From contig CAYFQV010000013.1 in the NCBI GenBank assembly GCA_964345195.1, positions 1 to 36,040 on the forward strand: DNA of 36,040 nt, given 5' to 3'. The DNA is from an uncultured Spirochaetaceae bacterium. GTDB lineage: Bacteria > Spirochaetota > Spirochaetia > DSM-27196 > PWMO01. Under the pieces are notes generated by a model, which searched no databases, was not told the origin of the DNA, and worked only from the letters and a program-made list of their open reading frames with translations. Below are positions 18,242 through 36,040 of this stretch, in pieces. Numbering within the stretch: the first letter of the stretch is position 1; every line of letters starts with the position of its first letter. Made by a program: the position numbers and the translations under genes.

Positions 18242-18256
18242 ATTCGGCTCCCTGTT

Positions 18257-19145: not shown

Positions 19146-19183
19146 AAAAAAACGATCCGCACAACCAACAGCGGTTGTGCGGA
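19146..19183 (-). terminator. Rho-independent terminator of the ABC importer operon
   Basis: On the minus strand: TCCGCACAACC-gctgtt-GGTTGTGCGGA (11-bp stem), then 'tcg', then a run of 7 T. It begins 60 nt downstream of the binding-protein stop. Confidence 0.8.
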
Positions 19184-19242
19184 CCATTGATTTTCGGGCG
19201 TCGCTCCAGTCGGCGAGCGCCTGTTGCATTTAGATCCTATTC

Positions 19243-20775
19243 CTACTCTTCTCCAACCCACATTGCGTACTGATTGAGACCATCTATGTACTCTTCGTAG
19301 CCGGCATCCATCACTTCCTGCACAAAATCGTCCCATTCATCGTCAATGCTTCGTTCACCAGTGACAAACTCGATATACCATGTATCCCTGATCTCGCTAA
19401 TCCGCGTCTCGATGTTTTGATACATGTCGTTCATGTCGTCCGGCGGCAGAAAGATTAAGTTATTGGGTACACCATCTTCAGCTACAGTCTCCATTGCCTG
19501 AAGGACCGGTTCGGGGGCAAATGCATCATTACGATATACCGGACTTTCGCCCAGGTGTTTCATCTCAGAAACATGGTTGGAGCCAATGTCCCTATCATAC
19601 GCCGCCTCGATTATCTGTCGCTCGCCGTTCTCCATTGTGTAATGGACACCTTCGATTCCCCAGTATACGGTCTCGCGACCTTCCTCGGAATGAAGATAGT
19701 CGATCATCGATAGAATACGTACTCGCTCTTGCTGAGTCGTGTCTGCGGAGATCGCGATGCTCTTCAGAAAGCCATGATTCCTTGGCCGGAAGCGACCAGC
19801 GGGGCCTTCAAGGGTATTGAGATAGGCGCTATCTATATTACTTTCCTCCTCCGCCGTTTCTATCAGCCTCCCATAGTGGTTGGCGTTGCCGGTAATCCAT
19901 GAACCAAACGTTCGGCCTTGGATGTAACGAGAATAGACATCTGCTCGATTGGCAATGCCGAACTCAGGATCAATAATTCCATCTTCGTAGAGACCATTCA
20001 AATACCTTAACGATTCCCGATATCCGGGAACAAAGGGGGTGTACTCGTACTCCCCGTTATGACGCGTCCAGTCACCGTTATGAGGGCCAAAGAATCCCAT
20101 GGTGAAATGCCGAAGCTGGACAGGATTCCAACCCGAAAATCCGGTTGTAATGTCAGGGTCGTTTTCAATAATGGCCTGCGCTACGTCACGGAATTCGTCG
20201 TAGGTCTCGGGCATCTCGTACCCATACTCGTCCAAGAGGTCTTGTCGTACCACGACATGACCCGCCACATAACCGAAAAACAACGGCACAACCGGAAGGC
20301 TTCCACCGTCTCCAAACAGCTTATAAGCCGCCGGATGAGCAGCCAGATGTGCTTCGAGGTTCGGAAATTCACCAGGGTACATTTCCAGCAGCTCTGCGAT
20401 ATCGACGATCAACCCATCATTGATCCAGGTATTCAAAACGGCGTTACGATTCGAATCGAGGAAATAAAACACATCAGGAATGTCACCGGAGGCAAAACTC
20501 AGGTTCATTGCCTGCATATAATCTCCCCACGGGGTGTTCTTGAAGCTTAAATCAACGTTGAATTTATCTTCATAGAACGCCTGCACCTGATCGTTGTCCG
20601 GAGGAACATTGCCACCCGGAACGGAATACTCGAGCGTTACTTGTGCCGACGTGTCACTCCCCGAGCCAGGTGACACCTCTTCTTCCTGACTACCCGCAGC
20701 GAACGCAGCTATTGTGAAGCCCGACAATAGCAACGCCACTCCCAAGACCTTATACCGCCGCAAACAAACTAACAT
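19243..20775 (-). CDS. extracellular solute-binding protein of a carbohydrate ABC importer (large LplA/YtcQ-like family 1 SBP)
   Basis: Signal peptide with an AFA/AGS cleavage-type site and a Ser/Glu-rich linker, then an SBP-like body. AGGAGGG lies 5 nt upstream of ATG 20775 (Met14 of the track ORF). Confidence 0.85.
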   Translation of the reverse strand: MLVCLRRYKVLGVALLLSGFTIAAFAAGSQEEEVSPGSGSDTSAQVTLEYSVPGGNVPPDNDQVQAFYEDKFNVDLSFKNTPWGDYMQAMNLSFASGDIPDVFYFLDSNRNAVLNTWINDGLIVDIAELLEMYPGEFPNLEAHLAAHPAAYKLFGDGGSLPVVPLFFGYVAGHVVVRQDLLDEYGYEMPETYDEFRDVAQAIIENDPDITTGFSGWNPVQLRHFTMGFFGPHNGDWTRHNGEYEYTPFVPGYRESLRYLNGLYEDGIIDPEFGIANRADVYSRYIQGRTFGSWITGNANHYGRLIETAEEESNIDSAYLNTLEGPAGRFRPRNHGFLKSIAISADTTQQERVRILSMIDYLHSEEGRETVYWGIEGVHYTMENGERQIIEAAYDRDIGSNHVSEMKHLGESPVYRNDAFAPEPVLQAMETVAEDGVPNNLIFLPPDDMNDMYQNIETRISEIRDTWYIEFVTGERSIDDEWDDFVQEVMDAGYEEYIDGLNQYAMWVGEE

Positions 20776-20824
20776 ACAGACCCTCCTATTATTTGGTCGA
20801 TGCTGAAATCGCACTAGCTACGAT

Positions 20825-21679
20825 TCAGCCCTTTATTGCTCCCAACATTATTCCCTTCACGAAGTACTTCTGCAGAAATGGATACACGAGTAGTATCGGC
20901 ACCGTTGTAATCATCACATTCGCGAGTTTCGTAATCTCAGTCGGGATATAATCCGCCGTGAGTTGCGCGTCTTGCAGTTCTATGTCTCTGATAATTCTGT
21001 ACAAGTACTCTTGGAGGAGTTTCTTGTCAGCGTCGTTAACAAAAAAGAGGGAAGGGAACAGAGTGTTCCAATACTTCACTGCCAAAAAAAGACCTATGGC
21101 GGCTAGTACCGGTTTTGAAAGAGGGATGACGAGCCTGAAAAAGATCCCATACTCGGACAAGCCATCGATTCGCGCCGAGTCCAGGATACCCTCCTCGAAA
21201 TCACGAAACCACGACCGAAAAATGATCATGAAAAAGACAACTACTAACTGGGGAATAATGTACACTCCATAAGAGTTAAGAAGCCCCACTGATCTAAACA
21301 TGATGTAAGTAGGAATCAAGCCGGTCTCGAGGAACATACTGATGACTAAGAGAGTCATCATGATCTTGACGCCTCTCATTCGTCGCGACAGTCCATAAGC
21401 TGTACAGGAGGTTGCGAGAAGACTCAAGACTGTTCCAACGGCAGTGATGATCGTTGTGTTGATGAACGGGCGAAAGATTGTGCCTTTGGAAAACACTTCC
21501 TGGTAAGCCGAGAGTGTCGGCTCAGACGGATACACCAACACGGCGGTCTTCATATAGTCCCCGTAAGTCATAAGCGAACCCACCAGCGTATACCAGAACG
21601 GATAAGCCATGAGGATACAAAGAACGACGAAAAAGCTGCGATTGAAGACCGTGAATAGATCGAGTTTCTTGCTCCTCAT
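20825..21679 (-). CDS. carbohydrate ABC transporter permease (LplC-like)
   Basis: Six-TM protein with an EAA-like loop DSARIDGLSEYGIFFRLVIPLSKP. Its ATG directly abuts the upstream TAA. Confidence 0.9.
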   Translation of the reverse strand: MRSKKLDLFTVFNRSFFVVLCILMAYPFWYTLVGSLMTYGDYMKTAVLVYPSEPTLSAYQEVFSKGTIFRPFINTTIITAVGTVLSLLATSCTAYGLSRRMRGVKIMMTLLVISMFLETGLIPTYIMFRSVGLLNSYGVYIIPQLVVVFFMIIFRSWFRDFEEGILDSARIDGLSEYGIFFRLVIPLSKPVLAAIGLFLAVKYWNTLFPSLFFVNDADKKLLQEYLYRIIRDIELQDAQLTADYIPTEITKLANVMITTVPILLVYPFLQKYFVKGIMLGAIKG

Positions 21680-22603
21680 TTAAATCACCCCCCGCTGCCC
21701 CAATCGTTTTGCGAGGAAGTCGGCGCCGAAGACCAACGCCATGGCCACAAGAGCGTCAAACATCCCAGCTGCTGTAGCGTAACTGTAGCGAGCTTCAAGA
21801 AGGCCGGTTCTGTATACATATGTTCGCAAGATGTCGCCGACCTCATACACGCGCTGATTGTACAGTACGAGCACTTGCTCAAATCCAAAGCGCATCATGT
21901 TGCCAATTCTGAGTATCAAGAGAATTACGATCACGTTGAGAATCGATGGTATCGTAATGTAAACAATTTTCTGTAGGCGGTTGGCACCATCAATGATCGC
22001 AGCTTCGTATAACTGTGGGTCGATGTTGCTCATACTCGCAAGATAAATAATGGTACCCCAGCCCGCCGTTTTCCATATACTGGAAACAACCAGAATGCCT
22101 CGAAACAACGACTTGTCTGCCAGAAACACGTGGGGCTCTCCACCAAACCGCACAATGATCTGGTTCAAGATTCCCCCGTTCACTGAGAGAAGATTAAAGA
22201 TGATTCCGCCGAGCACCACCCATGAAATGAAATGAGGTAGGTAGATGATCGTTTGGACTGTTCGCTTAAAGGACTGTTTGCGTATTTCATTTAGCAAAAT
22301 GGCAAGGATAATAGGTACAGGGAAGCCGAAGAGCACCTTGTATGACGAGATCACAATCGTGTTCCAGAATGCCTGCCAAAATTGCGGCGTTGAAAACAGT
22401 TGCTCGAAGTATGTCAAACCTACCCACGGAGCCTCGCTCAGTGCGCGAGTAACGCGGTAACCACGAAACGCCACCTGAAGGAAGTACAGAGGGTAGTAAT
22501 TCAGGAACACCACAAGAATTACGCCGGGAAGCGCAAAGACGTAGAATGCGCGGTTTTTTTTGATATGCTGCGACAGCGTCTCGCTGCCTTTAAGCTGATT
22601 CAT
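21680..22603 (-). CDS. carbohydrate ABC transporter permease (LplB-like)
   Basis: Multi-TM protein with EAA loop YEAAIIDGANRLQKIVYITIPS. ATG 22603 preferred over GTG 22612 because of its spacing from the GGGGG SD. Confidence 0.9.
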   Translation of the reverse strand: MNQLKGSETLSQHIKKNRAFYVFALPGVILVVFLNYYPLYFLQVAFRGYRVTRALSEAPWVGLTYFEQLFSTPQFWQAFWNTIVISSYKVLFGFPVPIILAILLNEIRKQSFKRTVQTIIYLPHFISWVVLGGIIFNLLSVNGGILNQIIVRFGGEPHVFLADKSLFRGILVVSSIWKTAGWGTIIYLASMSNIDPQLYEAAIIDGANRLQKIVYITIPSILNVIVILLILRIGNMMRFGFEQVLVLYNQRVYEVGDILRTYVYRTGLLEARYSYATAAGMFDALVAMALVFGADFLAKRLGQRGVI

Positions 22604-23130
22604 CTGGGACACCCCCTACAATGCAGATAACAGGAATCCAATACCTTTGCTTGGTCGAAGGAGGAGTGAATACACCATCGGGGGACAGGTGACTGATAGC
22701 CGCCTAAAAAATGAACCCTGTATCGAATACTAGAAAACAGCATTTTAGCTTTGAACAACCTCTTTTGCGAACAATAGATCTTCGCTTTACGAACTTGCAA
22801 GAGTAATACTTTGCTATTTTGGGTGTTCCGTTGCTTCGTAGTTGCAGTTAAATGAACCCGGAAACTATGGCCAAACGAAGCGGCGTCGAACTTGGGAACA
22901 GACGGTCTTATCCACATTAGCAAGCGAAAGATGCTGGCAATATAGTTTCCTCTCTCCTCTCGAGCGCTGGAATCCCAACTCTGCGGCCGGAACGCTTCAC
23001 TAGGACTTGGGGAGCGGCAATAATCAAGGAAAATGAGCCGCTGACAAAGCGATCAATCAGTTATGACCCGATCGGAGATGAGATATTCGTCTTCAGACCT
23101 TTGCGTCTCCCAGGCAACGATTGATTGGTT

Positions 23131-23166: not shown

Positions 23167-25368
23167 ATGCTACAAACTACACCTGGCCGTTATCATGGTT
23201 TCGCAACTACCTCGCTAGGTTCTGAGGTGCAAGCCGGCTCCATCTGCACTTTCAGTGTCGTCTACAATGTCGGTGATTACGGAATCGACGATTCGGGAAG
23301 CATCAAGCTATGTTGGAGATTCGCCTCCGACATCGGTACTCCCCAATTTGGTGACCCAGACGCGCCGAACTTTCTTGCGATCTCAACCACCGCAGATTGT
23401 GAGCTCGAACCTCGTTTCGACATTAAGGGAAACACGCGACCCTGGGGCCGAACCGTGTATGTAAAGACCCAGAAAGGCTTCCTGTCACCTGGTGATACCG
23501 TTCGGTTTGAGTTCCGCAATCTTCGTATGCAAACTTTCGTAGAGCGAGACTTTCGGTTTCGCTTGTACGTCGACGACGTTGCGACCTACGTTTACAATGA
23601 AGTCGCGGTAGCTCCCGCGGCGGACATTGTACCCGGGCCGGCGCAACGCATGCGGCTTTATCTTCCATCTGTTGCCCAACCTGGAGACGCGGTAGAGCTC
23701 CGAATCGTTGCAGAAGACCGCTGGGCCAATCCCACCACGTTTAACCGCAGAATCCGTCTCCGCAGCCAAGGGGCGCTTACCGGGCTCCCCCAGGTGATAG
23801 ACCCTGTTGAACTATTGAGTTCATCCACGTCCGGTAGTTCGAGGCCGACTCCCCTCCGAGTAGACGAACTACGGGTCACGGAGGCAGGCGTCGTGAGGGT
23901 TTGGGCGACTTGGGATGCGGGCGATTCATCTGTCGAGTTTGAGTCTAATCCGCTCGTCTCCGTTTCCGAGGGGCAGGAGAAAAAGGTGTGGGCGGATATG
24001 CATGGTCAGTCCGGTGAGACCATTGGAACAGGATCGATAGAGGAGTATTTCCGCTTTGCTCGAGATCTCGCCTGTGTAGACGTCGCCGGCCACCAAGGCA
24101 ACGACTTCCAGATTACTCGGGACTTCTGGGCGAAACTTCAGGGTGTTACCGCCACATTCAACGAAGAGGAACGCTTCATCACATTTCCAGGATACGAGTG
24201 GTCGGGTAATACTGCAGTTGGCGGTGATCGAAACATCTATTTTCGCACGGAAGGGAATCACATCCGCCGGAGTTCTCACGCCTTGTGTCCCGACGTCTTG
24301 GATGCCGGTGACGACTGCACGAATGTCGGCGATCTTTTTGAAGAGCTTTCGGCGGAGGATTGTCTCGTCGTGCCGCACGTTGGAGGAAGATACGCAGACG
24401 TCCATCAGCACGCCCCGGAGCTCGAACGCTCTGTCGAGGTGCACTCTGCATGGGGGACTTTCGAGTGGATACTTCACGATGCCATCCGGGACGGACACAT
24501 CGTTGGAATTGTTGCGATGAGTGACGGCCATAAGGGTCGCCCAGGCGCGAGTCACCCTGGCCGTGGCAAGTTCGGTTCGTACGGTGGTTTGACATGCCTT
24601 TCCGTCGACGCACTCACTCGTGATGAGGTTTGGAACGCATTTCGGAATCGACATCACTACGCCACGACTGGAGCACGCACGGTGCTCTTTCTGGACGGAA
24701 CTGAGCTCAAGTCAGGCTACAGCCTTCGCATGGGTGACTACCTTCAGCTTGCAGCCGCGGATAAACTGCGTCTTTCTGCTCGCTACGTGGGAACCGGCCC
24801 TGTCTTGGCAGTCGACGTGTTCAACGGGCTTGACTTGGTTGAGCATCGACGTATCCCTGGTCATGGCGACCGGATCCTGGTGTCATGGTCGGGATCTCTT
24901 CGACGTGGTCGAGGCCGCCAGATTAACTGGTCAGGATCCTGCGAAGTTGAGGATGGTGAGATTTCTGACATTAAAGCCATTAACTTTCACAATCCTGAGA
25001 GTCCCCTTCGCCAAGATTCGCCGAGCCGCCTCTCTTGGAATTCCTTCACTACCGGTGGATGGAGTGGTTTTGTTGGGCGACTTTCCAACCCACTCTCGGG
25101 CAAGCTGCAAATTCGAACTGACCGGCTCGACTACACCATTGATCTTGAGTCGATAGATAAGGAAGAGATAGCAATACCCGCAGGCGGTGTTGATGCCCAA
25201 CTTCGAGTCATGAGACTACCATCAAAAAACGAATCGAAAGAAATTGATTTCGAGGCTGAATATGAACTCTACGACACGAACGCCATATACTTACGGATCA
25301 CTCAGGAAGACGGCACTATAACCTGGTCGAGCCCGATGTACATAGACCGGAAACAAAACCGTTCTTAA
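23167..25368 (+). CDS. large cytoplasmic hypothetical protein; the central region resembles DUF3604/PHP-type metal-dependent hydrolases (tentative)
   Basis: 733-aa ORF. Central motifs WADMHGQSGE, FPGYEWSGNTAVGGDRNIYF, VPHVGGR and SDGHKGRPG suggest a PHP/DUF3604-like metal site. The first ~270 aa look like a beta-sandwich. The family assignment is from memory only. Confidence 0.5.
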   Translation: MLQTTPGRYHGFATTSLGSEVQAGSICTFSVVYNVGDYGIDDSGSIKLCWRFASDIGTPQFGDPDAPNFLAISTTADCELEPRFDIKGNTRPWGRTVYVKTQKGFLSPGDTVRFEFRNLRMQTFVERDFRFRLYVDDVATYVYNEVAVAPAADIVPGPAQRMRLYLPSVAQPGDAVELRIVAEDRWANPTTFNRRIRLRSQGALTGLPQVIDPVELLSSSTSGSSRPTPLRVDELRVTEAGVVRVWATWDAGDSSVEFESNPLVSVSEGQEKKVWADMHGQSGETIGTGSIEEYFRFARDLACVDVAGHQGNDFQITRDFWAKLQGVTATFNEEERFITFPGYEWSGNTAVGGDRNIYFRTEGNHIRRSSHALCPDVLDAGDDCTNVGDLFEELSAEDCLVVPHVGGRYADVHQHAPELERSVEVHSAWGTFEWILHDAIRDGHIVGIVAMSDGHKGRPGASHPGRGKFGSYGGLTCLSVDALTRDEVWNAFRNRHHYATTGARTVLFLDGTELKSGYSLRMGDYLQLAAADKLRLSARYVGTGPVLAVDVFNGLDLVEHRRIPGHGDRILVSWSGSLRRGRGRQINWSGSCEVEDGEISDIKAINFHNPESPLRQDSPSRLSWNSFTTGGWSGFVGRLSNPLSGKLQIRTDRLDYTIDLESIDKEEIAIPAGGVDAQLRVMRLPSKNESKEIDFEAEYELYDTNAIYLRITQEDGTITWSSPMYIDRKQNRS

Positions 25369-25484: not shown

Positions 25485-26555
25485 TTACTGCCCGAAAGCT
25501 TGGATTGCTTCACGGTCTTCAAGGACACCGATTTCGAGCTCAATCTGCCTACGGCCGAATGCGGATAATACGTCAACCATATTTCGTGCGGCCGCGTTCT
25601 CGTAACCTATCGGTAATGTCGTAGCAGGTTCCATTCCCATGGCATAGTCCTGCGCTGCCGGACATAGCCAGGAGGTGAAATACGGTAGGTGGAGCTTCCG
25701 GTACTTCACGTACAACCCGAGTTCACGCTCCGGATTGATGATCGCGGCCGAAACCGTACCGTCCGACTGCTCAACTAATTCATGGAAGTAGCACCGCTCA
25801 GACGCACCGGGCACTGGGTCCGCGAGCATTAGCTCTGACATGGCTACCTTCGACTCAGGCTCCTCACGAGAGATGATGGACGACGACCGTGTCACCAATT
25901 GCGCCCCATTATTCACCAGAGGGTAACCTCCGTTGATATGATAAAGCAACATGAACGGAGTATCTGTCGGTGAGTCGTTCTCAACGACGTCAATGATGGT
26001 AAAGGAGTTTACCCCGGCCACTGCTCCGATCTCTCGTCGCAAAGTGAGACTCTCGCCGAACGCCATCGACTCGCGCATAAGCCCGGAAACGCTAATCTGG
26101 TAGACCCCGTTAGACCATCCAGTCCGAACGCCCATCTGCTCGGCGGTAATATTCGAGATTCTCCCATGCAACCCCTGATCTTGCCACCCGAGTGGATCGC
26201 CGCGATTCACCGACGATGGCGGCCCAACATTCGAAAGACCGCACGTGGTGAGGAGTCCTCCGAAGAACCCGCGCAACCAGCCAATTCCTCGTGATTCGTA
26301 GCGCGACGCGGCGATAACGCCGCTCTTGGAGAGATAACTCAGGGGAACACCGCGAAACGATAGGCGAGAAATGTCCATGCCCCGCCCCGGTAGCACCGTG
26401 AACTCGAGACCGCTGCCTGTCCGGACGTCCACTGCACTCGTCCCGGCAGCTTGCCCCTCTTCCATTGTATATCGAACCGCACCGGCGAGAGCAGACATAT
26501 TTCCGACACGAGATCGCAGATACCGCTCGTTCTCAGGGAAGACAAACTCCTTCAC
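25485..26555 (-). CDS. DUF4432 / aldose 1-epimerase (mutarotase)-like protein
   Basis: Galactose-mutarotase-like beta-rich sequence (LPGRGMDISRLSFRGVPLSY...GLHGRISN). Proposed GTG start at 26555, with GGGGGA 6 nt upstream and a GTGA overlap with the kinase stop. The alternative GTG 26579 gives a 28-nt overlap. Confidence 0.6.
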   Translation of the reverse strand: MKEFVFPENERYLRSRVGNMSALAGAVRYTMEEGQAAGTSAVDVRTGSGLEFTVLPGRGMDISRLSFRGVPLSYLSKSGVIAASRYESRGIGWLRGFFGGLLTTCGLSNVGPPSSVNRGDPLGWQDQGLHGRISNITAEQMGVRTGWSNGVYQISVSGLMRESMAFGESLTLRREIGAVAGVNSFTIIDVVENDSPTDTPFMLLYHINGGYPLVNNGAQLVTRSSSIISREEPESKVAMSELMLADPVPGASERCYFHELVEQSDGTVSAAIINPERELGLYVKYRKLHLPYFTSWLCPAAQDYAMGMEPATTLPIGYENAAARNMVDVLSAFGRRQIELEIGVLEDREAIQAFGQ

Positions 26556-28042
26556 GTAGAATCCCCCTGTGCTGGCCACATACGCAGTTCCAGATCTTGA
26601 TACGCCGCGAAAACCTGTTCGTAGTGTTGGTGCCGCTTTTCATCCGGCTCGAATCGCTGGTCGTCTTTAATCAGTGATGCAGCCTCGTCGACATTCCGAT
26701 AGATCCCTGAGCCGAGGCCCGCGAGCACGGCGGCTCCCACGGTGGCCGTTTCATGGGTTTGCGACACCCGTACCGGCAGCCCGGAAACGTCGGAAATCAC
26801 CTGACACCACGGCGCGCTTTGAGCGCCACCACCGTACATGCAGAGTCCCTCGGGCCGGTGCGATTCATCTGCAGAGAGAATGTTCGCATGGATCTGAAAT
26901 GCAATGCCCTCGAAGACCGCACGAACCACATCTTGTGCCTGGGTGTTGAGAGTCAATCCGACGAACGCTCCGGTCGAATTCTCTACCCAGCGCGGGCTCC
27001 CACCGCCGGCGAGGTGGGGATAGTAGAAGACCGAGCCGCTCCCCACACCGGAGCGGGCCGCGAGCGACGACAGCTCGGCGTACGCAGTCCCGGGGTAGAA
27101 CGTGTCGCGCAGCCAGCGCAATGACGCCCCGGCCGTCCCAAGAACTCCATCAAGAGTCCAGTTTCCGGCAAATAGTGACGGTGAGCAAGGAAGAGCAGAA
27201 GTTGGATCAGTGTCAGGACGGTCGAGTTGGAGCAAGATCTGGCACGCGGTACCCAACGACACACCTGCCTCTTTCTCGGCCATGCCTGCTCCTAGAGCCG
27301 CACAATGCTGGTCTTGCCCGCCCACGCAGACCATGGTTTCCGGCGTCAGACCGAGGTCGCCGGCCACCTGCTCGCGTAGTCGGCCCACTAGGGTACCCGC
27401 ACGCTGGATGTGCGGCAGCATGTCCGTTTCCACACCCGTGAACTCGAGCAGCTCGCTCGACCAGCGTCCATTAACCAGGTCATACATGAGGCTGCCTGAC
27501 GCCATGGTGCAATCGGTTGCGAAAACGCCGCAAAGCTTGTGAAGCACAAAGTCGTGTGCCATGAGGTACCTGGCCGTCTTCCGATGCACCTCCGGTCGGT
27601 GTGCCCGGAGCCACATCAGCTTCGGCAGGACGTAATATGCGTTGTTGCGCTTACCGGTAAGGCTTCGAACTCTCTCGTTCCCTATAGATTCAGAGATCAC
27701 CCGCGACTCCGCGGCCGCTCGTGTGTCGAGCCAACTCAAGGCATTGCACAAAGGATCTCCCGCCTGATCAACGGGAACGAAGGATATGCCTTGCGAACTG
27801 ACGCTGATCGCACGGACATTCGCCGGACTCACATCGCACTGGGATACAACCTCACGTGCCGTTCTCTGAACCAATTGCCACCATTGATCGGCGTCTTGTT
27901 CAACCTCGCCGCGCTCACCAGTCAGCAACGGATACTCATAGTAGCTGACTCCAAGAGTTCGTAACCCGGAAGTAAAAAGGATCGAACGACAGCCCGTAGT
28001 TCCCAGGTCAATTCCCAGGATGCACGCCTCGCTACCGCCCAT
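26552..28042 (-). CDS. FGGY-family carbohydrate kinase
   Basis: ILGIDLGTTGCRS (N-terminal FGGY motif) and YGGGAQSAPWCQVISDVSGLPV (C-terminal FGGY motif). Start placed at ATG 28042, 2 nt after the upstream TAA. Confidence 0.85.
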   Translation of the reverse strand: MGGSEACILGIDLGTTGCRSILFTSGLRTLGVSYYEYPLLTGERGEVEQDADQWWQLVQRTAREVVSQCDVSPANVRAISVSSQGISFVPVDQAGDPLCNALSWLDTRAAAESRVISESIGNERVRSLTGKRNNAYYVLPKLMWLRAHRPEVHRKTARYLMAHDFVLHKLCGVFATDCTMASGSLMYDLVNGRWSSELLEFTGVETDMLPHIQRAGTLVGRLREQVAGDLGLTPETMVCVGGQDQHCAALGAGMAEKEAGVSLGTACQILLQLDRPDTDPTSALPCSPSLFAGNWTLDGVLGTAGASLRWLRDTFYPGTAYAELSSLAARSGVGSGSVFYYPHLAGGGSPRWVENSTGAFVGLTLNTQAQDVVRAVFEGIAFQIHANILSADESHRPEGLCMYGGGAQSAPWCQVISDVSGLPVRVSQTHETATVGAAVLAGLGSGIYRNVDEAASLIKDDQRFEPDEKRHQHYEQVFAAYQDLELRMWPAQGDST

Positions 28043-28044
28043 TA

Positions 28045-29364
28045 TTACAATGCGTCCATCAGGCGGCCGGCGGTCGCAACCAGTTCCGCTCCAAAGTCCG
28101 GTGCCAGTAGCGATGTATCGACCTCGTAACCGCCTTCCCGCTGTGCCGCCGGCGTGCAGACATATCCGGGGAGGCAACCATTGGCAAGAGACACCACCAT
28201 AGTGGTCTGTCCGCCGCGCAGACTCTTGATCTCGGTTCCAAACTCAACGAATAACTCACCTGGCAGTCCTACCATCGTCACACCACCAACGGCGAGCACT
28301 TGGACTTCGGCCTCACGCTCATCCTCGTATAGCTCCAGAGCTCCGCCTTCCTTGAATACCTCAACATACCCGAGAAGGTCTTCGGCGCCGAGAAGCAACA
28401 CATTCGCATTCTGTCGCTCGATGTACGGCGCACCGGAATGTTCGAGCGCAGCATGCGCGGCCGCTGCCTTGCGGACAGCATCATACGCCTTCTCTTTGCT
28501 CGGAAGCTCTCGCAGTCTAATCGGCACCTCGACTGAGCGCGCACGCACGCGAAGCTCGCGACTGGTCGAGATTGACTCCAGGGCGGCGCCGGCGGCATCA
28601 GCGATCGTGTAACCGATTCGCCGAGCCTCTTCAAAACTCTGGTCCGTACGAAAATAACGCGTGCTCTGGTCTCCGGATGTACCCTGCAGAAACAATGTGA
28701 GCGCATGGGGATAACGTTGGGAAAGCCGCTCGCGTACGTAACCTGGATAGTCCGCTGAAACCGCTGTATTCTCCGCGTGAAGTAAGGTGGGATGCAGCGC
28801 GTAGTTGACCACAATGGCGCGACACACACCCTCGGAATCCACCACTTTCAAAACACCTACGGTCGGGTCCTGCGGCCCCTCGGGATCACGACGATTTCCG
28901 CCGACGCCCTTGTCAGAACCGCATATCTCGGTTCCCGCGCCGAACGACGCATCGAACATGCCTTTCTGTGCCTGTACAACGCTGTCCACCACACGCTCTC
29001 GGAGAAACGTCACGTATGCCTCGTCTTGCATTACTCCATTTCGGAGCGAATCAATATCGAGTCGACCCGAAGCCCATGGGCCGGAATGAGTGTGGGTGCA
29101 GCCGATCAATACATTTCGACGCGGAATACCCGTGAGTTGCTCAACTACTTCACGAACCGCGGTCACATGCTTCTTGGAAAAAAAGAGAAGATCGAGGGAC
29201 ACCATTGCTATACTAGAAACACCGTCACTGATGACAACTGCGGTCGAGAAAAGCGGATCATGCACCTCCGTATTGTGGCGTGGATGATGCGGATAGCCCG
29301 CCAATTCCATCCCCTGAGGAGGCGTAATCTCGGTTCTGCCGGCGCCCGCACGGATTCGACTCAT
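28045..29364 (-). CDS. neutral/alkaline ceramidase N-terminal-domain-like zinc amidohydrolase (paralogue 2), cytoplasmic
   Basis: IGCTHTHSGPW, NYALHPT, LQGTSGDQS and LANGCLPGYV. Colinear with 16901..18241. ATG 29364 overlaps the upstream TGA as ATGA. Confidence 0.6.
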   Translation of the reverse strand: MSRIRAGAGRTEITPPQGMELAGYPHHPRHNTEVHDPLFSTAVVISDGVSSIAMVSLDLLFFSKKHVTAVREVVEQLTGIPRRNVLIGCTHTHSGPWASGRLDIDSLRNGVMQDEAYVTFLRERVVDSVVQAQKGMFDASFGAGTEICGSDKGVGGNRRDPEGPQDPTVGVLKVVDSEGVCRAIVVNYALHPTLLHAENTAVSADYPGYVRERLSQRYPHALTLFLQGTSGDQSTRYFRTDQSFEEARRIGYTIADAAGAALESISTSRELRVRARSVEVPIRLRELPSKEKAYDAVRKAAAAHAALEHSGAPYIERQNANVLLLGAEDLLGYVEVFKEGGALELYEDEREAEVQVLAVGGVTMVGLPGELFVEFGTEIKSLRGGQTTMVVSLANGCLPGYVCTPAAQREGGYEVDTSLLAPDFGAELVATAGRLMDAL

Positions 29365-30752
29365 GAGTCGAATCTCTCCACGGATAGGCCCGGTACCCAG
29401 TCGCATGCGAGCGCGAGCACATCCGCACATTGCCGGTAGATGGCCGAACAATGATGAACGTATGGCCCTTCGATCAGGCGACGTTCCCAACGGGGCCAGT
29501 TATCGACTTCCAACCAGCCGTAAACCTCGCGGGTCGCCGGCCCGGGAACCATGCGTCCCTCCCCTACACCAAGTCGGTATTCACCTCTCGCGCCGTCAAA
29601 CCGACAAACCGTTACATCGCCGTCTTTGAGCTGGAACTGTAGCGACGTAGCCGGAAGCCCCTCGAGAATCCAGGGGGGGAGAATCGGAATAGGCCCGGTA
29701 TCCGGGCGCCTGAGGGAGACCGGTGCGGACGCGTGCCAGAGCAAAACTGCGTTATCGTTGTTCGGATGGCGGGAGGTGAACTCCGGAAAGAATGACGGCG
29801 TAGCATCAGAGGCGGCGGCTTCGATCATGACCGAGCTGAGCGCTCCGTGGATATCGGTCTCCGCCGAAATCGGAATGCGCTCTTCCGCAAGTGCGACGCC
29901 GAGCCCAAAGCCCTCTCCAACCGCATCCTGAATCGAGTTAAAACTCTGCATCGCAATTGCGTCTAGACCGTGTTGCTCCGCCATGTCGAGCATCTCGTCG
30001 CGGAGCGCAAGGCTGTTCAGAAGCCCATCGTCGGGTACAGAGTTAAGATCGATCAATTGCCCCAAGTCTCGGAGCTCAGCTCGATAGTCGGCGTCGTTTA
30101 CCGAACGTCGTTTTCGAAGTCTCTCAATCACTTCAACCATGTCGAACGGCATAACCTCGATTCCGAAGCGATTCAGCAGATCCGCTTCATCGATAATCGT
30201 CGACCAGAAGAAGTCTATGCGGCTGCCGAGTTGTCCGATCCGAGCCGTCTGCAACGCTTTCGCCACGCCGACTGAGTGTAGGAAGCTCTGAATGCCGTTT
30301 TCGAACGCCGCGTCGGAAACCCGACAATTCTCAAGGTATCGGTAGTTCACGGAAAGTGTGTGTAACACCTTGCTCGACGCGAAACATCCGCAGAGTGAAT
30401 CCCGGAGCCGGGACCCATCCTCTCTCGGTGCATCATCACGGGGCCCCCAGAGTAACGTTGGCACGTTCAGACGGCGAGCGACTACGCCGGCAACCCCTTC
30501 GGTTCCAAAATTGCAGTGGGGCAGAAACAAGGCATCAACGCTGTTGTCCCTGAAGTACTTGGCAACCCTCTCTGCATCCTCCTGTCGCTTGATTAAGCCG
30601 TCAGGGACGATGCCTTCAAGGTCCACCGTCTCGACACCCATCTCGGCCAGTTTCTTAAGCACGAGGTTCTTTTGTCGGACGGCTTCTGTATGCGAGAAGA
30701 CGAACTTACCCAGCGGGCATACAGCAAGTCGCACCGTCTTCTTTCTGAACAT
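29361..30752 (-). CDS. L-fucose/L-arabinose isomerase family protein (COG2407-like, short form)
   Basis: 463 aa. The N-terminal region (RLAVCPLGKFVFS...FLPHCNFGTEG...PTLLWGPRD...RLRDSLCG) is typical of FucI-related isomerases. SD GGGAG upstream. Confidence 0.7.
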   Translation of the reverse strand: MFRKKTVRLAVCPLGKFVFSHTEAVRQKNLVLKKLAEMGVETVDLEGIVPDGLIKRQEDAERVAKYFRDNSVDALFLPHCNFGTEGVAGVVARRLNVPTLLWGPRDDAPREDGSRLRDSLCGCFASSKVLHTLSVNYRYLENCRVSDAAFENGIQSFLHSVGVAKALQTARIGQLGSRIDFFWSTIIDEADLLNRFGIEVMPFDMVEVIERLRKRRSVNDADYRAELRDLGQLIDLNSVPDDGLLNSLALRDEMLDMAEQHGLDAIAMQSFNSIQDAVGEGFGLGVALAEERIPISAETDIHGALSSVMIEAAASDATPSFFPEFTSRHPNNDNAVLLWHASAPVSLRRPDTGPIPILPPWILEGLPATSLQFQLKDGDVTVCRFDGARGEYRLGVGEGRMVPGPATREVYGWLEVDNWPRWERRLIEGPYVHHCSAIYRQCADVLALACDWVPGLSVERFDS

Positions 30753-30791
30753 GACTTATCATCTCCCGGGACGCACAAGAGGATCCTTCAT

Positions 30792-31292
30792 CTACTCGCC
30801 GATCAGACGAACCTGCAGTGTCCGCGCACGTGCCCGGACCTGATCCCAGTCCACAAAATAGATGAATCCAAACTCTCCCAAGTCCAGCTGCCCTTCGTCG
30901 AGAACGATACTCTCTGATCTCCCGAAAAGGCACGACCGGAGGTGGGCATCTGTGTTTAGACTGGTCCATTCGCCCTCTTCGCCCACGCTCATTGCGAACT
31001 CGATGTGCTTTGGGCCCGGATGCATGTATTGACCCTCAACCCGACAGGTCGGAAAGATCCTCTCCATTGCGTTACACAGATCCTGTTGCAGATACTCCAG
31101 ACCGAAATACGTCGTGTCGTGCGAACATTCTTGAAGCATCACGGAGCACGTCGTGTGGCGTGAATAGACCACGCAAATCCCATCAGTCATGCCCGATCGC
31201 CCACAGATCGCCTTCACTTGTTCAGTGACATCGTGAAACGTCGGGTGCAGGCCGACGGACTTTACCTCCACGGTCTCTCGATACGTCTTCAT
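30792..31292 (-). CDS. YjbQ/UPF0047 family protein (so-called secondary thiamine-phosphate synthase)
   Basis: Family pattern CVVYSRHTTCSVMLQE, NTDAHLRSCLFGRSESIVL and the C-terminal ...RLIGE, colinear with E. coli YjbQ as I recall it. ATGA overlap with the upstream gene. Confidence 0.8.
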   Translation of the reverse strand: MKTYRETVEVKSVGLHPTFHDVTEQVKAICGRSGMTDGICVVYSRHTTCSVMLQECSHDTTYFGLEYLQQDLCNAMERIFPTCRVEGQYMHPGPKHIEFAMSVGEEGEWTSLNTDAHLRSCLFGRSESIVLDEGQLDLGEFGFIYFVDWDQVRARARTLQVRLIGE

Positions 31293-32005
31293 GTTGGTAA
31301 CTCCTTGTTTCTATCGTCCCATGCCGCCCGGACAGCTCCAATCATGGCATCCACTGCGGCAGCCCGATCAGGAGCCTGAGTTATTCCGCTGGACGAACCA
31401 GTGGCATCGGCTCCGGATCGAATGGTCTCGTACACATCTTGCGCCGTCCTGATCCCGGCCCCTTGCAGGACGAGAATATTGGAATCAACGGCGCGGATGG
31501 CACCGTTCGCCGCTTCCACGTACACCCGATCGCTTGTGTGGCCGGTGCCAATGAGCTCGGTAGGCTCCGCCACAATGATATCCGGACCGAGCGTAGCGAT
31601 TGCCTTCGCTTCGCGAATGGAGTCGGCACACACGATCGTGAACAGCCCTACTTCACCCGCACGTCTCACAGTCGCGTTTAGCTCAGCGAGTGTGAGCGGG
31701 TGCTCAGCATGATTGAGCATGACCCCCGCGCATCCAAGCGCTCTCAGCGACTCAGGCAGGATCTTGGTGAGACCACGACCGGGGTACAGGGCGTCCATGT
31801 GCGGAGCACAGATGATTAAACGTTCAGTCGTCTCGACAACTAATCGTAAGTCGACGAAGGGTGCTGTAAAGAGCACATCCACATTGTACTTGATTGCGGC
31901 GGCGTCAGCGATTCGCGCGAGTTCGGCAACATCCTCGCCGTAGAGATAGGCCTTCGGCCCCACTTCAAAAAAAGGTGGGCGTGGTATCCGTGGGGCCTTA
32001 ACCAT
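31289..32005 (-). CDS. triose-phosphate isomerase family protein, archaeal-type paralogue
   Basis: Candidate catalytic Lys (EVGPKAY), LNHAEH (HSE-type His) and VAEPTELIGTG (catalytic Glu; archaeal TIMs have EPPELIGTG). ATG 32005 preferred over TTG 32035. No SD; the leader is A-rich. Confidence 0.75.
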   Translation of the reverse strand: MVKAPRIPRPPFFEVGPKAYLYGEDVAELARIADAAAIKYNVDVLFTAPFVDLRLVVETTERLIICAPHMDALYPGRGLTKILPESLRALGCAGVMLNHAEHPLTLAELNATVRRAGEVGLFTIVCADSIREAKAIATLGPDIIVAEPTELIGTGHTSDRVYVEAANGAIRAVDSNILVLQGAGIRTAQDVYETIRSGADATGSSSGITQAPDRAAAVDAMIGAVRAAWDDRNKELPT

Positions 32006-32036
32006 ATTTTTTTTCGTTTTTGATTGCACGAACAAG

Positions 32037-32065
32037 ATTGTTAACTAATCCACGCAATACGTCAA
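32037..32065 (-). promoter_or_regulatory. candidate sigma70 promoter of the six-gene operon (TTGACG-17 nt-AACAAT)
   Basis: Read on the minus strand: -35 at 32065-32060 and -10 at 32042-37, about 30 nt upstream of ATG 32005. Two TTTGTAT direct repeats (32096-32102 and 32112-32118) lie just upstream. Confidence 0.3.
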
Positions 32066-32358
32066 CCTCATTAACCAAAAACTCACTGTCGTCTTTGTAT
32101 GTAAAAATTTTTGTATATCCAGCTGTCTCAAGCGTTGTCGGCCCTGCGACGCCGCAGCCAACGAGAAACACATGGACGACGGCGAACGCGCTTCACCGAC
32201 AACAAAGTTATGTCGCTCGGCTTTTGAGCGGATCAGAACGTGGTATGACCGGGAAAACGAATGTGGAAGACACCAGCGGCACGAGCAACCTCACCGTCGG
32301 CACCGTGGAGGGTGCGGACGTGGGGAGGATACTCACCGCAATAAAGTTTGACGACTTG

Positions 32359-33135
32359 TTAACAACAATGAATCTGCAAGCCGAGACGCTCAATTCTATG
32401 TAGCGTCTCAGAGTCGGCGTCTGAATCCGTCACCAAGTGAGAGGCGGGAGAAAAGTTACCGAACTTATAGAAGCTCTCATGATCGATTTTCATAGAATCA
32501 GCCACGATGATCGTTCGATCGGAGCGGTCCACCATAATCCTGTTGATTTCCGCTTCCTCGGCGTGTAGCGTTGTTAAACCTTTCTCCGCGGAGATACCGT
32601 CGACCGATAGAATTGCACTATCAGCCTTGTACTGTAGGAGCTCCGAACCCGCGGTGTCCCCGAATGTAAATGCATGCTCCGAGTTCACGCTTCCTCCGAG
32701 TAGCAGAACACGAAATCCAGGCACCGCACTCAGCTCGACGGCAATTGGCAACGAGTTCGTGACAACGCTCAGATTCTTCCTCTTTTTCAATTCGAGGGCA
32801 GTGCGGTAGGCTGTACTCCCTGAGTTGATCATCAGCGTGCTGCCGTCGTTAACCAATTCGACCGCCAAGAGAGCGATCCGCCTCTTCTGCTCCCCTTGCT
32901 GTTCTGCTCGATGGCGGAACTCGAGACCAGTGATTGTAGGTGCCGCCCGGGTAGCCCCACCAGGTGTCCGCCTGCAGTATCCGTCGCGCTCCAGTATTGC
33001 AAGGTCGTTCCGAAGCGTGACTGGAGTCGCATGGAGCAGTTTTCCAAGTTCGGCTACGCGCACCTCTCCATCACGCCGCAAGAACTCCAGAATGGATCGC
33101 CGTCTACTGTCGATTTTCAGCTCATCCTTTGCCAT
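32359..33135 (-). CDS. DeoR/GlpR family transcriptional regulator
   Basis: N-terminal wHTH (RRRSILEFLRRDGEVRVAELGKLLHATPVTLRNDLAILERDG) and a C-terminal DeoR sugar-phosphate sensor domain. Confidence 0.9.
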   Translation of the reverse strand: MAKDELKIDSRRRSILEFLRRDGEVRVAELGKLLHATPVTLRNDLAILERDGYCRRTPGGATRAAPTITGLEFRHRAEQQGEQKRRIALLAVELVNDGSTLMINSGSTAYRTALELKKRKNLSVVTNSLPIAVELSAVPGFRVLLLGGSVNSEHAFTFGDTAGSELLQYKADSAILSVDGISAEKGLTTLHAEEAEINRIMVDRSDRTIIVADSMKIDHESFYKFGNFSPASHLVTDSDADSETLHRIERLGLQIHCC

Positions 33136-33144
33136 AGGTAACCC

Positions 33145-33738
33145 TCAAGAGTTCAACCGCTCTCCCACTGCACCGCCCGGATGGATAAGCGCAAACTCAT
33201 CCAGCCCAAATTGCGTGCCTTCCATGATGGCGACTTGCAGGGCGTCGAAGATCGCCACGGTAGCCATGAAACTGGCGGTGGCCATGACGTTGAACCGGTC
33301 ACTCTCCCGCTCGATCTTCAGCTTCAGGAGGATATCACTACTCCGAGCCAGAGGCGAATCCTCGTTCTCCGTAATCAGGATAACAGTTGACTTCTTCTTT
33401 TTGCATACCGACACAATTGGGATAAGCTCCGCCGTCCGTCCTCCTCGTGATGCCATCACCATTGTGTCACCTTCCTGGACGAATCCGAGTCCACCATGGG
33501 GAGCCTCTCCGGGAGGAATGAACTTGGCAGACTGTTCAACACAGCACAGCGAGTGCGCAAATTTCATTGCCGCGATTCCGGCATTTCCGCATCCAGTAGT
33601 GGCAATCCTGTTCGCGGAAGTCAGCGAATCCACCGCGCGTGCGAATGCGTGCTCGTCGAGATACCCTTGGATATCGGAGATCGCCTGGGATTCGATCAGA
33701 AGCGAGTGGCGTGCCATTTTCAACGATTCTTCGTTCAT
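33145..33738 (-). CDS. single-SIS-domain sugar-phosphate isomerase-like protein (KpsF/GutQ-type SIS without CBS domains)
   Basis: RIATTGCGNAGIAAMKFAHSL (KpsF has GxGKSG), PHGGLGFV (KpsF has HGDLG), ASRGGRTAE and the C-terminal HPGGAVGERL. It lies 9 nt upstream of the DeoR gene. SD AGAGG. Confidence 0.75.
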   Translation of the reverse strand: MNEESLKMARHSLLIESQAISDIQGYLDEHAFARAVDSLTSANRIATTGCGNAGIAAMKFAHSLCCVEQSAKFIPPGEAPHGGLGFVQEGDTMVMASRGGRTAELIPIVSVCKKKKSTVILITENEDSPLARSSDILLKLKIERESDRFNVMATASFMATVAIFDALQVAIMEGTQFGLDEFALIHPGGAVGERLNS

Positions 33739-34953: not shown

Positions 34954-36040
34954 ATGCCTGCTGACACATCCCCCGCCGACGTGCTACGCAAGACGTGGAA
35001 AAACAGCATGACCAACACGCACTCTCGCTCACACAGTCAGCAGTCGAAGTCGCAGTCTTACGACCTCGTCGCCACCTGCGCCGGCGGGCTGGAGCCCATT
35101 CTCGAGAAGGAGCTCGGCACGCTCGGCGTTTCGGTCACCGGCCACGACGCCGGTCTGGTCCGCGCCGCCGGCAGTCCCGCAACGCTTGTTACCCTCAACC
35201 GACAGGTCCGCACGGCGTCCCGCATTCTTATATCTCTAGCTAAGGGTCCGGTAGAGACCTATGACGATGTCTACGCTCTAGCCCGGAAGGTAGCGTGGGA
35301 GTCGCGGATCAACGCATCGGCAAGCTTTGCGGTTACGGCCCTGCCGCGCTCGCGGAGCCTCACGAATCACAAGTACCTGGCCATGCGGGTAAAGGACGCG
35401 GTTGTCGACCGTCAGCGCGACCGTGGCGGCAAGCGCTCCAACGTGGAACGGCGCAGTCCGGATTACCCGATCGTGGTCCATGTGGATGACGAGGCCGCGG
35501 AGATTTCGCTGGACACCAGCGGCCGCAGCCTTCATGAACGGGGCTACCGCCGCGAATCCGGCGAGGCTCCGCTGCGCGAGAGTCTTGCCGCGGGACTGGT
35601 GCTGCGCTCCGGCTGGGACGGGACGGTACCTCTCTTCGACCCGTTCTGCGGATCCGGAACAATCGCCATTGAGGCGGCACTCCTGCAGGCGGGGATCGGC
35701 CCCGGTGACCTCGGCCGCCGCTACGCCTTCGAAGGCTGGCCGGAGTTCCGCGGTGTGACGGCGGGGCGCGCGCCGGGCGGGGAAACCACTCAGACGGCGC
35801 GAGCTCCCATCATTGCGGCGGACAAGGACGCGGATGTGTTGGAGAAGGCCCGCCGCAACGCCCGGCGCGCGGGGGTGGAAGAGCGCATCACCTTCGTGCA
35901 CGGCGCCTTCGAGGAGCTGGAACCCGACGAGTTGCTCCGTCCCTCGAGCGGAGAGCCCCCCGACGGCGCGGACGGTGGTCTACAGGGCGTGATCATTAGC
36001 AATCCGCCCTACGGCGAGCGAATAATCTATGAGGCTGTTG
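34954..36040 (+). CDS. THUMP-domain class I SAM-dependent RNA methyltransferase (RlmL N-terminal half / YpsC-like), 3' partial
   Basis: Not in the ORF track because there is no stop inside the window. Hand translation of frame 1 is open from ATG 34954 (alternative ATG 35008) to the window edge. It reads YDLVATCAGGLEPILEKEL, HERGYR, PLRESLAAGL, DPFCGSGTIAIEA (motif I) and VIISNPPYGER (motif IV). Confidence 0.85.
   Translation, partial: MPADTSPADVLRKTWKNSMTNTHSRSHSQQSKSQSYDLVATCAGGLEPILEKELGTLGVSVTGHDAGLVRAAGSPATLVTLNRQVRTASRILISLAKGPVETYDDVYALARKVAWESRINASASFAVTALPRSRSLTNHKYLAMRVKDAVVDRQRDRGGKRSNVERRSPDYPIVVHVDDEAAEISLDTSGRSLHERGYRRESGEAPLRESLAAGLVLRSGWDGTVPLFDPFCGSGTIAIEAALLQAGIGPGDLGRRYAFEGWPEFRGVTAGRAPGGETTQTARAPIIAADKDADVLEKARRNARRAGVEERITFVHGAFEELEPDELLRPSSGEPPDGADGGLQGVIISNPPYGERIIYEAV

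Follow-up and report, generated by a model that had tools for sequence, protein, structure and literature searches.

A candidate DeoR-controlled sugar pathway in an uncultured spirochaete combines a SIS/TIM/YjbQ trio with a FucI-fold isomerase, a ceramidase-fold protein and an FGGY kinase

In a 36,040-nucleotide stretch of DNA from an uncultured Spirochaetaceae bacterium (contig CAYFQV010000013.1, positions 1 to 36,040; hereafter the window), eight tightly packed minus-strand genes lie between positions 25485 and 33738, as confirmed by an open reading frame (ORF) listing and by direct reading of the junctions. In order of transcription they encode a SIS phosphosugar isomerase, a DeoR-family regulator, a paralogue of TIM, a YjbQ/UPF0047 protein, an aldose-ketose isomerase, a predicted amidohydrolase of the ceramidase fold, an FGGY kinase and a DUF4432 protein. 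Families were assigned with Pfam and NCBIfam release 20 (June 2026), applying the model cut-offs. The genes, their domain families and their junctions are as the first-pass annotation of this DNA had described them, and each of its family calls was confirmed in these profile searches. Its further claim, that the enzyme set matches no characterised pathway, was borne out by three kinds of search. None of the eight proteins scored above the NCBIfam equivalog cut-off for a named enzyme, with only generic family models passing; a search of the PDB with the proteins of the unit returned generic fold relatives and no characterised close relative; and a literature search, whose scope left out most subscription-journal papers, found no pathway linking these families. 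As far as the searched resources show, the gene set is conserved and uncharacterised, and it is built from known superfamilies.

The most interesting part of this set is the trio formed by the SIS protein, the TIM paralogue and the YjbQ protein. The first of these (197 aa; 33145..33738) is a single-domain, KpsF/GutQ-like phosphosugar isomerase (Pfam SIS, 73 bits) that reaches 118 bits against NCBIfam kpsF, under the cut-off of 203.7. It consists of the SIS domain only and does not have the CBS-pair architecture of KpsF and GutQ. Since single-domain isomerases of its type exist (3ETN), arabinose-5-phosphate isomerase activity would be possible without CBS domains. Among solved structures the best match is an uncharacterised SIS protein of Listeria (3FXA, 1e-45); the arabinose-5-phosphate isomerases 3ETN, 5UQI and 2XHZ come next. 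The adjacent regulator (32359..33135) has DeoRC (158 bits) and HTH_DeoR (38 bits) matches, and its best NCBIfam match is AgaR at 194 bits, under the cut-off of 260.

The TIM paralogue (238 aa; 31289..32005, with the ORF extending to 32035; Pfam TIM, 61 bits) is of the archaeal type, as had been proposed, scoring 163 bits against the archaeal model PRK04302 (cut-off 132) and aligning with 1HG3 at 1.7e-35. Against the TIGR00419 equivalog it reaches 77.7 bits, under the cut-off of 130.6. Alignment to 1HG3 and 2H6R and the family alignment show retention of the phosphate loops and of the catalytic Lys, His (in LNHAE) and Glu (in AEPTELIGTG). The catalytic-site Asn is replaced by Gly, the protein reading VGPK where archaeal TIM has INFK, a change that is not expected in a working TIM. 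Every trio-linked copy in the family alignment carries FExGPK instead of INFK, thereby gaining a conserved Glu, and keeps the Glu in AEP[TS]ELIGTG; we refer to these copies as the GPK subfamily. TIM copies found beside phosphotransferase system (PTS) and class-II aldolase genes read NPK. This NPK sister group (L105, L106, L108, L109 and L111 among the loci described below) lies between PTS EIIA/IIB genes and a gene for a class-II aldolase of the fructose-bisphosphate/tagatose-bisphosphate type, with YjbQ copies nearby in L105 and L111. Separately, a 2.7-kb ENA contig (P0242) encodes a 398-aa GPK-type TIM in which about 160 residues are duplicated internally in tandem, a feature that could be real or an assembly artefact.

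The third member of the trio is a divergent YjbQ/UPF0047 protein (166 aa; 30792..31292; PF01894, 89.4 bits with a cut-off of 27; TIGR00149, 72.1 bits with a cut-off of 67.75). Alignment with 1XBF reveals two insertions (..YFGLEYLQQDL.. and ..HPGPKH..) totalling about 28 aa, and the protein lacks the compact length of about 135 aa and the canonical GTWQGI, reading GEFGFI. The insertions, a QECSHD motif and the GEFG-for-GTWQ replacement are common to all trio-linked YjbQ copies. A search of 1.84 billion proteins yielded just 29 cluster representatives at E<=1e-30. That YjbQ has no settled physiological role, as previously stated, still holds, the papers found continuing to give the function of YjbQ/UPF0047 as unknown. 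When overproduced in E. coli, YjbQ bypasses pdxB through 2-oxo-3-hydroxy-4-phosphobutanoate, a small four-carbon phospho-keto acid (PMC3010111).

The isomerase (463 aa; 29361..30752), of a subfamily we designate t1, was assigned to the AraA/FucI/SftI fold by fold match. Its AlphaFold2 (AF2) model, with a predicted local distance difference test (pLDDT) score of 91.5, has the three-domain AraA/FucI fold and superposes on L-arabinose isomerases with a template-modelling (TM) score of 0.82 at 13-15% identity, and on FucI/D-arabinose isomerase with a TM score of 0.75. A sequence search of the PDB gave no match, relatives appearing in the fold search only. The Fucose_iso_C score of 23.3 bits is under the cut-off of 29.3, the best NCBIfam match is SftI (82 bits versus a cut-off of 700), and neither FucI nor AraA was matched in NCBIfam at E<0.01. 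An alignment of three subfamilies shows no variation at E298, D300 and H434, and E409 and E423 are mostly kept. Membership of a sulfoquinovose pathway was rejected, as the scores are far under cut-off and the unit has neither a transaldolase nor a sulfoquinovosidase.

The predicted zinc amidohydrolase (439 aa; 28045..29364; Ceramidase_alk, 54 bits) is a short form of the ceramidase fold that has the catalytic domain alone. Its match to the Pfam profile is confined to the N-terminal half (positions 3-223 of 509); against NCBIfam ceramidase_neut it reaches 19.9 bits versus a cut-off of 1200. Its HTHSGP, HPT and PGE motifs align with the zinc-site residues of 2ZWS (HxH, H, E), and its AF2 model (pLDDT 88.7) resembles only neutral ceramidases (query-normalised TM score, TMq, 0.71-0.73; 16-18% identity). 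A genuine ceramidase was rejected on architecture (439 aa against 630-690 aa, with no C-terminal domain) and on the sugar-operon context. Since no signal peptide is evident and the genes sit in sugar operons, a lipid substrate appears unlikely. The kinase (496 aa; 26552..28042; FGGY_N, 215 bits; FGGY_C, 100 bits) is xylulokinase-like, scoring 336.5 bits for XylB, just under the cut-off of 380.25, with 182 for FucK and 77 for RhaB. Finally, the DUF4432 mutarotase-fold protein (PF14486, 282 bits) aligns at 7.7e-24 with 3TY1, a "hypothetical aldose 1-epimerase" of mutarotase fold. It has 356 or 364 aa (25485..26555 or 25485..26579) depending on which GTG is taken as its start.

The spacing of these genes is close. 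The SIS stop and the DeoR start are 9 nt apart, TIM and YjbQ overlap in an ATGA (31289-31292), 39 nt separate the YjbQ stop from the isomerase ATG, the isomerase and ceramidase-like genes overlap in a second ATGA (29361-29364), the ceramidase-like gene is joined to the kinase by TAA-ta-ATG (28042-28047), and the kinase stop lies within GTGA (26552-26555), DUF4432 starting at that GTG or at one 24 nt upstream. This closeness suggests translational coupling, and co-transcription of the unit is predicted from junction spacing alone. The larger gap between DeoR and TIM measures 323 nt to a TTG (ORF end 32035) and 353 nt to the ATG at 32005, the start chosen by gene callers on identical public contigs. 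This 353-nt non-coding leader (32006..32358, minus strand) probably holds the promoter and operator of the six-gene unit that follows it. It contains a sigma-70-like TTGACG-17-AACAAT (32065-32037), the count of such sites being not above chance; more generally, promoter-like and terminator-like matches occurred at or below their counts in shuffled sequence. A comparison of 9-mers in five upstream regions (that of the window and those of four related loci) gave no common DeoR operator, and the repeats within the leader are short and unconvincing. Two other candidates for the leader were discarded: a riboswitch or other RNA element, Rfam giving no match and the tRNA scan being empty, and a decayed gene, blastx returning only a spurious antisense ORF of the window itself.

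To what extent do these genes travel together? In a scan with the isomerase, covering one genome per GTDB species, 581 relatives were found and 80 loci were examined with flanks of up to 10 kb, neighbours being called by tblastn and ORF clustering with Pfam labels. Many metagenome contigs are short, ORF calling was crude with antisense ORFs masking some genes, and the locus scans give E-values that apply to the candidate stretches only. By isomerase, the closest genomes are metagenome-assembled genomes (MAGs) of Treponemataceae and Spirochaetaceae; identical copies of the isomerase gene occur on contigs from metagenomes of microbial mats (ENA PRJEB25599 and others). The commonest neighbours were the FGGY kinase (27 of 80 loci), the ceramidase-like gene (near or adjoining in 21-23) and, third, a URO-D-like gene (18), followed by a GFO/IDH/MocA oxidoreductase (13), a class-III aminotransferase (9), DeoR (8) and a creatininase-family hydrolase (5). 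The isomerase, the short ceramidase-like protein and the XylB-like kinase thus form a first module, which spans Spirochaetes, Clostridia, Planctomycetota, Verrucomicrobiota, Lentisphaerota, Armatimonadota, Chloroflexota and Actinomycetota. Conservation is poorest for DUF4432, which was counted in 3 of 80 loci; L006, L080, L086 and L088 have it, L089 has a remnant, and Aldose_epim takes its place elsewhere. Genes of the trio are rare within 10 kb of the isomerase: SIS in 2 of the 80 loci, TIM in 1 and YjbQ in 1, the TIM and YjbQ both belonging to L007. As a side observation, the URO-D-like neighbours (L006, L008, L011, L015, L016, L020, L089, L136 and others) have faint similarity to MtaA/CmuA methyltransferases only.

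A metagenome scan with the TIM paralogue gave 43 loci and defined a second, tightly linked module, namely the trio, usually with DeoR. SIS, TIM and YjbQ are mutually adjacent in about 20 of the 43, in several orders, and SIS adjoins the GPK-type TIM in 17 of 22 loci. For a linkage test, the loci used were those flanked by 1.5 kb or more on both sides, and partners were counted within 6 kb. GPK-type TIM genes had SIS as a partner in 8/8 well-flanked loci, YjbQ in 7/8 and FGGY in 6/8; true TIMs of the NFK type had trio or FGGY neighbours in 0/2 well-flanked loci and in 0/4 overall. Judged by this linkage together with the shared sequence changes, SIS, the TIM paralogue and YjbQ behave as a co-evolving unit. 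The first-pass annotation had treated SIS as one half of a SIS/DeoR pair. The two genes are indeed adjacent, and the pair also stands beside TIM-YjbQ in L086, L095, L136, L138 and L139. The co-evolution of SIS with TIM and YjbQ implies, however, that it is a pathway enzyme rather than a mere partner of the regulator.

Across both scans the gene set recurs, so that it withstands a refutation test that the first-pass annotation had itself named, namely lack of conservation in other genomes; the six-gene order of the window was not conserved in the loci examined. Two other spirochaete-type contigs hold all or nearly all of the genes, rearranged. L086 (66% isomerase identity) has all eight in another layout, with DeoR and SIS on one strand, TIM, YjbQ and the isomerase on the other, then a CUT2 ABC transporter, a second, distant isomerase, the ceramidase-like and FGGY genes, and DUF4432 on the DeoR strand. 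L007 resembles it and adds NagA-like and NagB-like genes. A third locus, L088 (64%), reads LacI, isomerase, ABC transporter, ceramidase-like, FGGY, MFS, DUF4432, aminotransferase. The transporter of related clusters is of the CUT2 type with a ribose-binding-protein-like receptor; by homology, the binding protein of L086 gave only generic ribose-/galactofuranose-binding relatives. In the closest relative, L089 (85%), DeoR, isomerase, ceramidase-like and FGGY are intact and URO-D-like, aminotransferase and GFO genes are added, neither TIM nor YjbQ remains, and of SIS and DUF4432 there are only tblastn fragments (1460-1865 and 6312-6578). This looks like module decay, with an assembly error in this Logan contig as an alternative. 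The six genes had been taken as one unit; that unit is modular, as the loss of TIM and YjbQ in L089 illustrates.

The trio is usually accompanied by a XylB-like FGGY kinase, and often by a FucI-fold isomerase only distantly related to that of the window (about 20% identity) and a ceramidase-like or CE4 deacetylase gene. Several arrangements occur: DeoR (opposite strand), FGGY, isomerase, (CE4), YjbQ, SIS, TIM, ceramidase-like (L104, L107); FGGY, isomerase, YjbQ, SIS, TIM (L103, from a human gut metagenome); SIS, TIM, YjbQ, ceramidase-like, isomerase (L099); and ABC transporter, LacI, isomerase, ceramidase-like, then DeoR, SIS and RPE divergent from TIM and YjbQ, with CE4 on the DeoR strand (L139). 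The cultured gut bacterium Christensenella massiliensis (L136, CP117826) carries GH38, URO-D-like, FGGY, creatininase and a further URO-D-like gene, followed by DeoR and SIS divergent from TIM and YjbQ. In all, the trio, a FucI-fold isomerase, FGGY and a deacylase-type gene are mixed in L086, L007, L099, L103, L104, L107, L115, L123 and L139, and the system was found in mats, sediments, digesters and the human gut. This recurrence of the gene families together in other genomes argues for an association beyond chance.

The slots of the two modules can be filled differently. A NagA-like amidohydrolase (212 bits versus a cut-off of 226) and/or a distant NagB relative (about 320 aa; NCBIfam 34 bits; PDB 6NBG at 1.7e-4) join or replace genes in L090, L100, L112, L120 and L138, the NagB relative taking the position of the isomerase in some loci. 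The amidohydrolase slot is elsewhere occupied by a creatininase-type (L136), NagA-type or CE4-type protein, so that four unrelated metal hydrolase families interchange. We also observed a ribulose-phosphate 3-epimerase (RPE) paralogue within the DeoR-SIS unit, divergent from TIM-YjbQ, in L138 (9091-9750) and L139 (9202-9855). A DHDPS-family lyase gene followed by two small paralogues (about 150 aa each, without a Pfam match) occurs beside the ceramidase-like gene in L092 of the cultured Anaerobacterium chartisolvens (QPJT01000036; 229-2009), where a DUF386 gene is also present, and beside the trio in L138 (5666-7585); the two small proteins are apparently fused in L090 (5183-6136).

Outside the eight genes, the window is devoted to glycan utilisation. 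Between 4630 and 14073, three sulfatases, one of them above the arylsulfatase equivalog cut-off, a GH123 N-acetylgalactosaminidase and an APH-family kinase, for which NCBIfam gave no match, make up a cluster of the sulfated-glycan type. Also encoded are a CUT1 ABC transporter, two AraC regulators and a hexapeptide acetyltransferase. After the acetyltransferase gene comes a second ceramidase-fold paralogue (16901-18241, minus strand), about 25% identical to the first and overlapping the gene for a 613-aa protein (region 15066-18766, minus strand) with a weak GH51 arabinofuranosidase-like match of 58 bits; homologues of the 613-aa protein adjoin FucI-like isomerase genes in L023 and L038. Convergent to the operon is the gene for a 733-aa protein (23167-25368, plus strand) with a faint DUF3604 match, a homologue of which (41% identical) adjoins a FucI-like gene in a Kiritimatiellales MAG (L051, 6097-8178). 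The G+C content is 0.55-0.60 across the six-gene unit (26000-32000) versus 0.48-0.50 across the ABC-transporter genes (19000-23000), and it rises to 0.67 in the last kilobase (35001-36000); a mosaic origin is possible.

From the identities, folds, active-site changes and co-inheritance described above we infer a substrate, an order of steps and each of the reactions. The reading we favour, and to which we give about an even chance, is that the eight genes constitute one DeoR-controlled cytoplasmic pathway for an imported acylated reducing monosaccharide, most likely an N-acetylated amino sugar delivered by the neighbouring glycan-degrading genes. The DUF4432 protein would equilibrate the anomers and the ceramidase-fold zinc enzyme would remove the acyl group. 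The AraA/FucI-fold enzyme would then convert the aldose to a ketose, possibly with loss of ammonia if the amine is at C2, and the XylB-like kinase would phosphorylate the ketose. The trio would act on the ketose phosphate, joined in some genomes by the RPE paralogue, moving the carbonyl and/or inverting stereocentres near the phosphate end to give an ordinary pentose-phosphate or glycolytic intermediate. Such a rearrangement would explain the absence of an operon-encoded aldolase; searches of the unit's proteins for families bear out the earlier statement that it has no aldolase or dehydrogenase. The amino-sugar component of this reading was already raised in the first-pass annotation, and the support it has gained is circumstantial: the creatininase-, NagA- and CE4-type proteins that fill the hydrolase slot, the NagB-like, aminotransferase and GFO genes, and the DHDPS-type lyases. 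Its substrate and reactions stay conjectural. More tentatively, and with some doubt on our own part, we propose that SIS, GPK-type TIM and YjbQ make up a new three-enzyme module in which a carbonyl shift and epimerisation of a ketose phosphate would allow entry into central metabolism without aldol cleavage, the sugar probably deriving from an N-acetylated amino sugar.

Several observations weigh against the one-pathway proposal. Members of the isomerase family mostly lack the trio within 10 kb, and the trio occurs without a window-type isomerase in L136 and L138; with the modules found apart, the two halves may serve different substrates in different genomes. The creatininase-family protein of L136 matches IolN (67 bits), and the family has a C-C ring hydrolase among its members, so the enzyme in the hydrolase slot may be something other than an amidase. 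A transaldolase/FSA gene is present in L112 and L123, and the NPK-type TIM adjoins a class-II aldolase gene, so C-C cleavage may belong to the pathway and be encoded elsewhere in this genome. Moreover, XylB-like kinases usually place the phosphate at the end remote from the carbonyl, so that a substrate suited to a TIM-type enzyme is not evident, except where the sugar is short or SIS is the first to act.

The first of these points could be carried further, to two separate modules lying side by side, a substrate-specific front end (isomerase, ceramidase-like protein, kinase and DUF4432) and a general phosphosugar unit (SIS, DeoR, TIM and YjbQ) for one or more other substrates. Each module does occur alone, most of the 80 isomerase loci, as well as L006 and L088, having no trio within 10 kb; loss in L089 was confined to one module, and in the window itself the 353-nt gap parts SIS-DeoR from the rest. 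Even so, TIM-YjbQ lies on the same strand just 39 nt from the isomerase, and in nine loci the trio is interleaved in many orders with a FucI-fold isomerase, FGGY and a deacylase-type gene. Such repeated re-association across lineages argues for one pathway, and we regard two independent modules as unlikely, though the most serious of the alternatives.

The aldolase-type genes of related loci raise another alternative, an ordinary aldolase route of the fucose, rhamnose or Aga type whose aldolase or transaldolase is encoded elsewhere, with the TIM paralogue interconverting dihydroxyacetone phosphate and glyceraldehyde 3-phosphate and with SIS and YjbQ as accessories. Besides the NPK-type copies beside class-II aldolase and PTS genes (L105-L111) and the TAL_FSA genes already mentioned, the AgaR match of the regulator and the retained catalytic Lys, His and Glu of TIM are in keeping with such a route. 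It is nevertheless improbable: all trio-linked TIM copies combine the Asn-to-Gly change with the gained Glu, no aldolase is present in the window's unit or in the available DNA of L086, L104, L107, L136 and L139, and the strict linkage with SIS and YjbQ would be left unexplained. Similarly improbable, if anything slightly more so, is a pentose route without amide chemistry (of the D-arabinose type, the alternative named in the first-pass annotation, or of the L-pentose type), in which an isomerase and a pentulokinase would be followed by SIS, the RPE paralogue, TIM and YjbQ to yield xylulose- or ribulose-5-phosphate, the ceramidase-fold protein being unrelated. The arabinose-5-phosphate isomerases among the SIS relatives, the fold shared by L-arabinose and D-arabinose/L-fucose isomerases, the XylB-like kinase, the RPE paralogue of L138 and L139, the ribose-binding-protein-like receptor of related loci and the weakly GH51-like gene beside the second ceramidase-like gene all suit it; the near-constant metal hydrolase, whether ceramidase-like, creatininase, NagA-like or CE4, and the NagB-like genes and aminotransferases that join in would find no explanation. 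That the pathway has already been described in work beyond the libraries searched is very improbable, for although those libraries omit most subscription-journal papers, NCBIfam release 20 had no equivalog above cut-off save generic models and the PDB no characterised close relative.

Comparison with known systems helps to place the single pathway that we favour. Regulators of erythritol and tetritol catabolism are of the DeoR type. In the erythritol catabolism of Brucella (EryA, EryB, EryC, EryH/TpiA2 and EryI), an FGGY kinase is succeeded by three finishing enzymes, namely a racemase, a paralogue of TIM and an isomerase of the RpiB type (PMC11508834); the window shares with it the succession of an FGGY kinase and several phosphosugar isomerases, including a TIM paralogue, without an aldolase. 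Unlike the Brucella system, the window has an archaeal-type TIM paralogue with the GPK motif, SIS where RpiB (EryI) acts and YjbQ where the racemase EryC might; it lacks a dehydrogenase, and its kinase comes after an aldose isomerase and an amidohydrolase. Homologues of EryC (AP_endonuc_2), EryH (bacterial TIM) and EryI (RpiB) are absent from the unit by Pfam and NCBIfam, and only the logic is alike. The finishing of the route by the trio would thus resemble that by EryC/EryH/EryI, the equivalence of steps being proposed as an analogy. The isomerase fold, FGGY kinase and mutarotase-fold protein likewise recall the openings FucU/FucI/FucK, AraA/AraB and SftI, the last a proven sulfoquinovose isomerase of the sulfo-transaldolase pathway (PMC7491151). 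In contrast to the fucose, arabinose and sulfoquinovose routes, the unit has no aldolase, transaldolase, sulfoquinovosidase or lactaldehyde enzyme, and its kinase is XylB-like, unlike those of FucK/RhaB routes.

Two E. coli systems and one enzyme family offer further parallels. The ceramidase-fold protein shares with neutral ceramidase (2ZWS, 4WGK) the fold of the catalytic domain and the His-x-His, His and Glu zinc-site residues. The Aga pathway for N-acetylgalactosamine and galactosamine comprises AgaR, AgaA, AgaS, AgaI and KbaY. As in that pathway, the window has a regulator that best matches AgaR, a SIS enzyme and, nearby, a GH123 N-acetylgalactosaminidase gene, and among the related loci there are genes for NagA-like and NagB/AgaI-like proteins as well as for a class-II aldolase. 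It differs in having an ABC transporter and an FGGY kinase instead of a PTS and a single-domain SIS protein that is KpsF-like rather than AgaS-like, and the ceramidase-fold deacylase, the FucI-fold isomerase, the TIM paralogue and YjbQ have no Aga counterpart. In the gut operon, srlR, encoding a DeoR regulator, adjoins gutQ, encoding a SIS arabinose-5-phosphate isomerase, just as DeoR and a KpsF/GutQ-type SIS gene are adjacent in the sugar operon described here. GutQ carries CBS domains, and what it contributes to glucitol use is unclear; in the system described here the SIS gene varies together with TIM and YjbQ.

YjbQ/UPF0047 proteins are widespread and their structures have been solved, and the strict link of this subfamily to two phosphosugar isomerases and a sugar kinase makes the question of their function experimentally definable. 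If the three-enzyme module tentatively proposed above is correct, it would provide the first physiological reaction for the YjbQ/UPF0047 family. The ceramidase fold would also gain its first non-lipid role, its short forms acting as cytoplasmic sugar deacylases, and a missing bacterial route for the use of modified sugars would be added.

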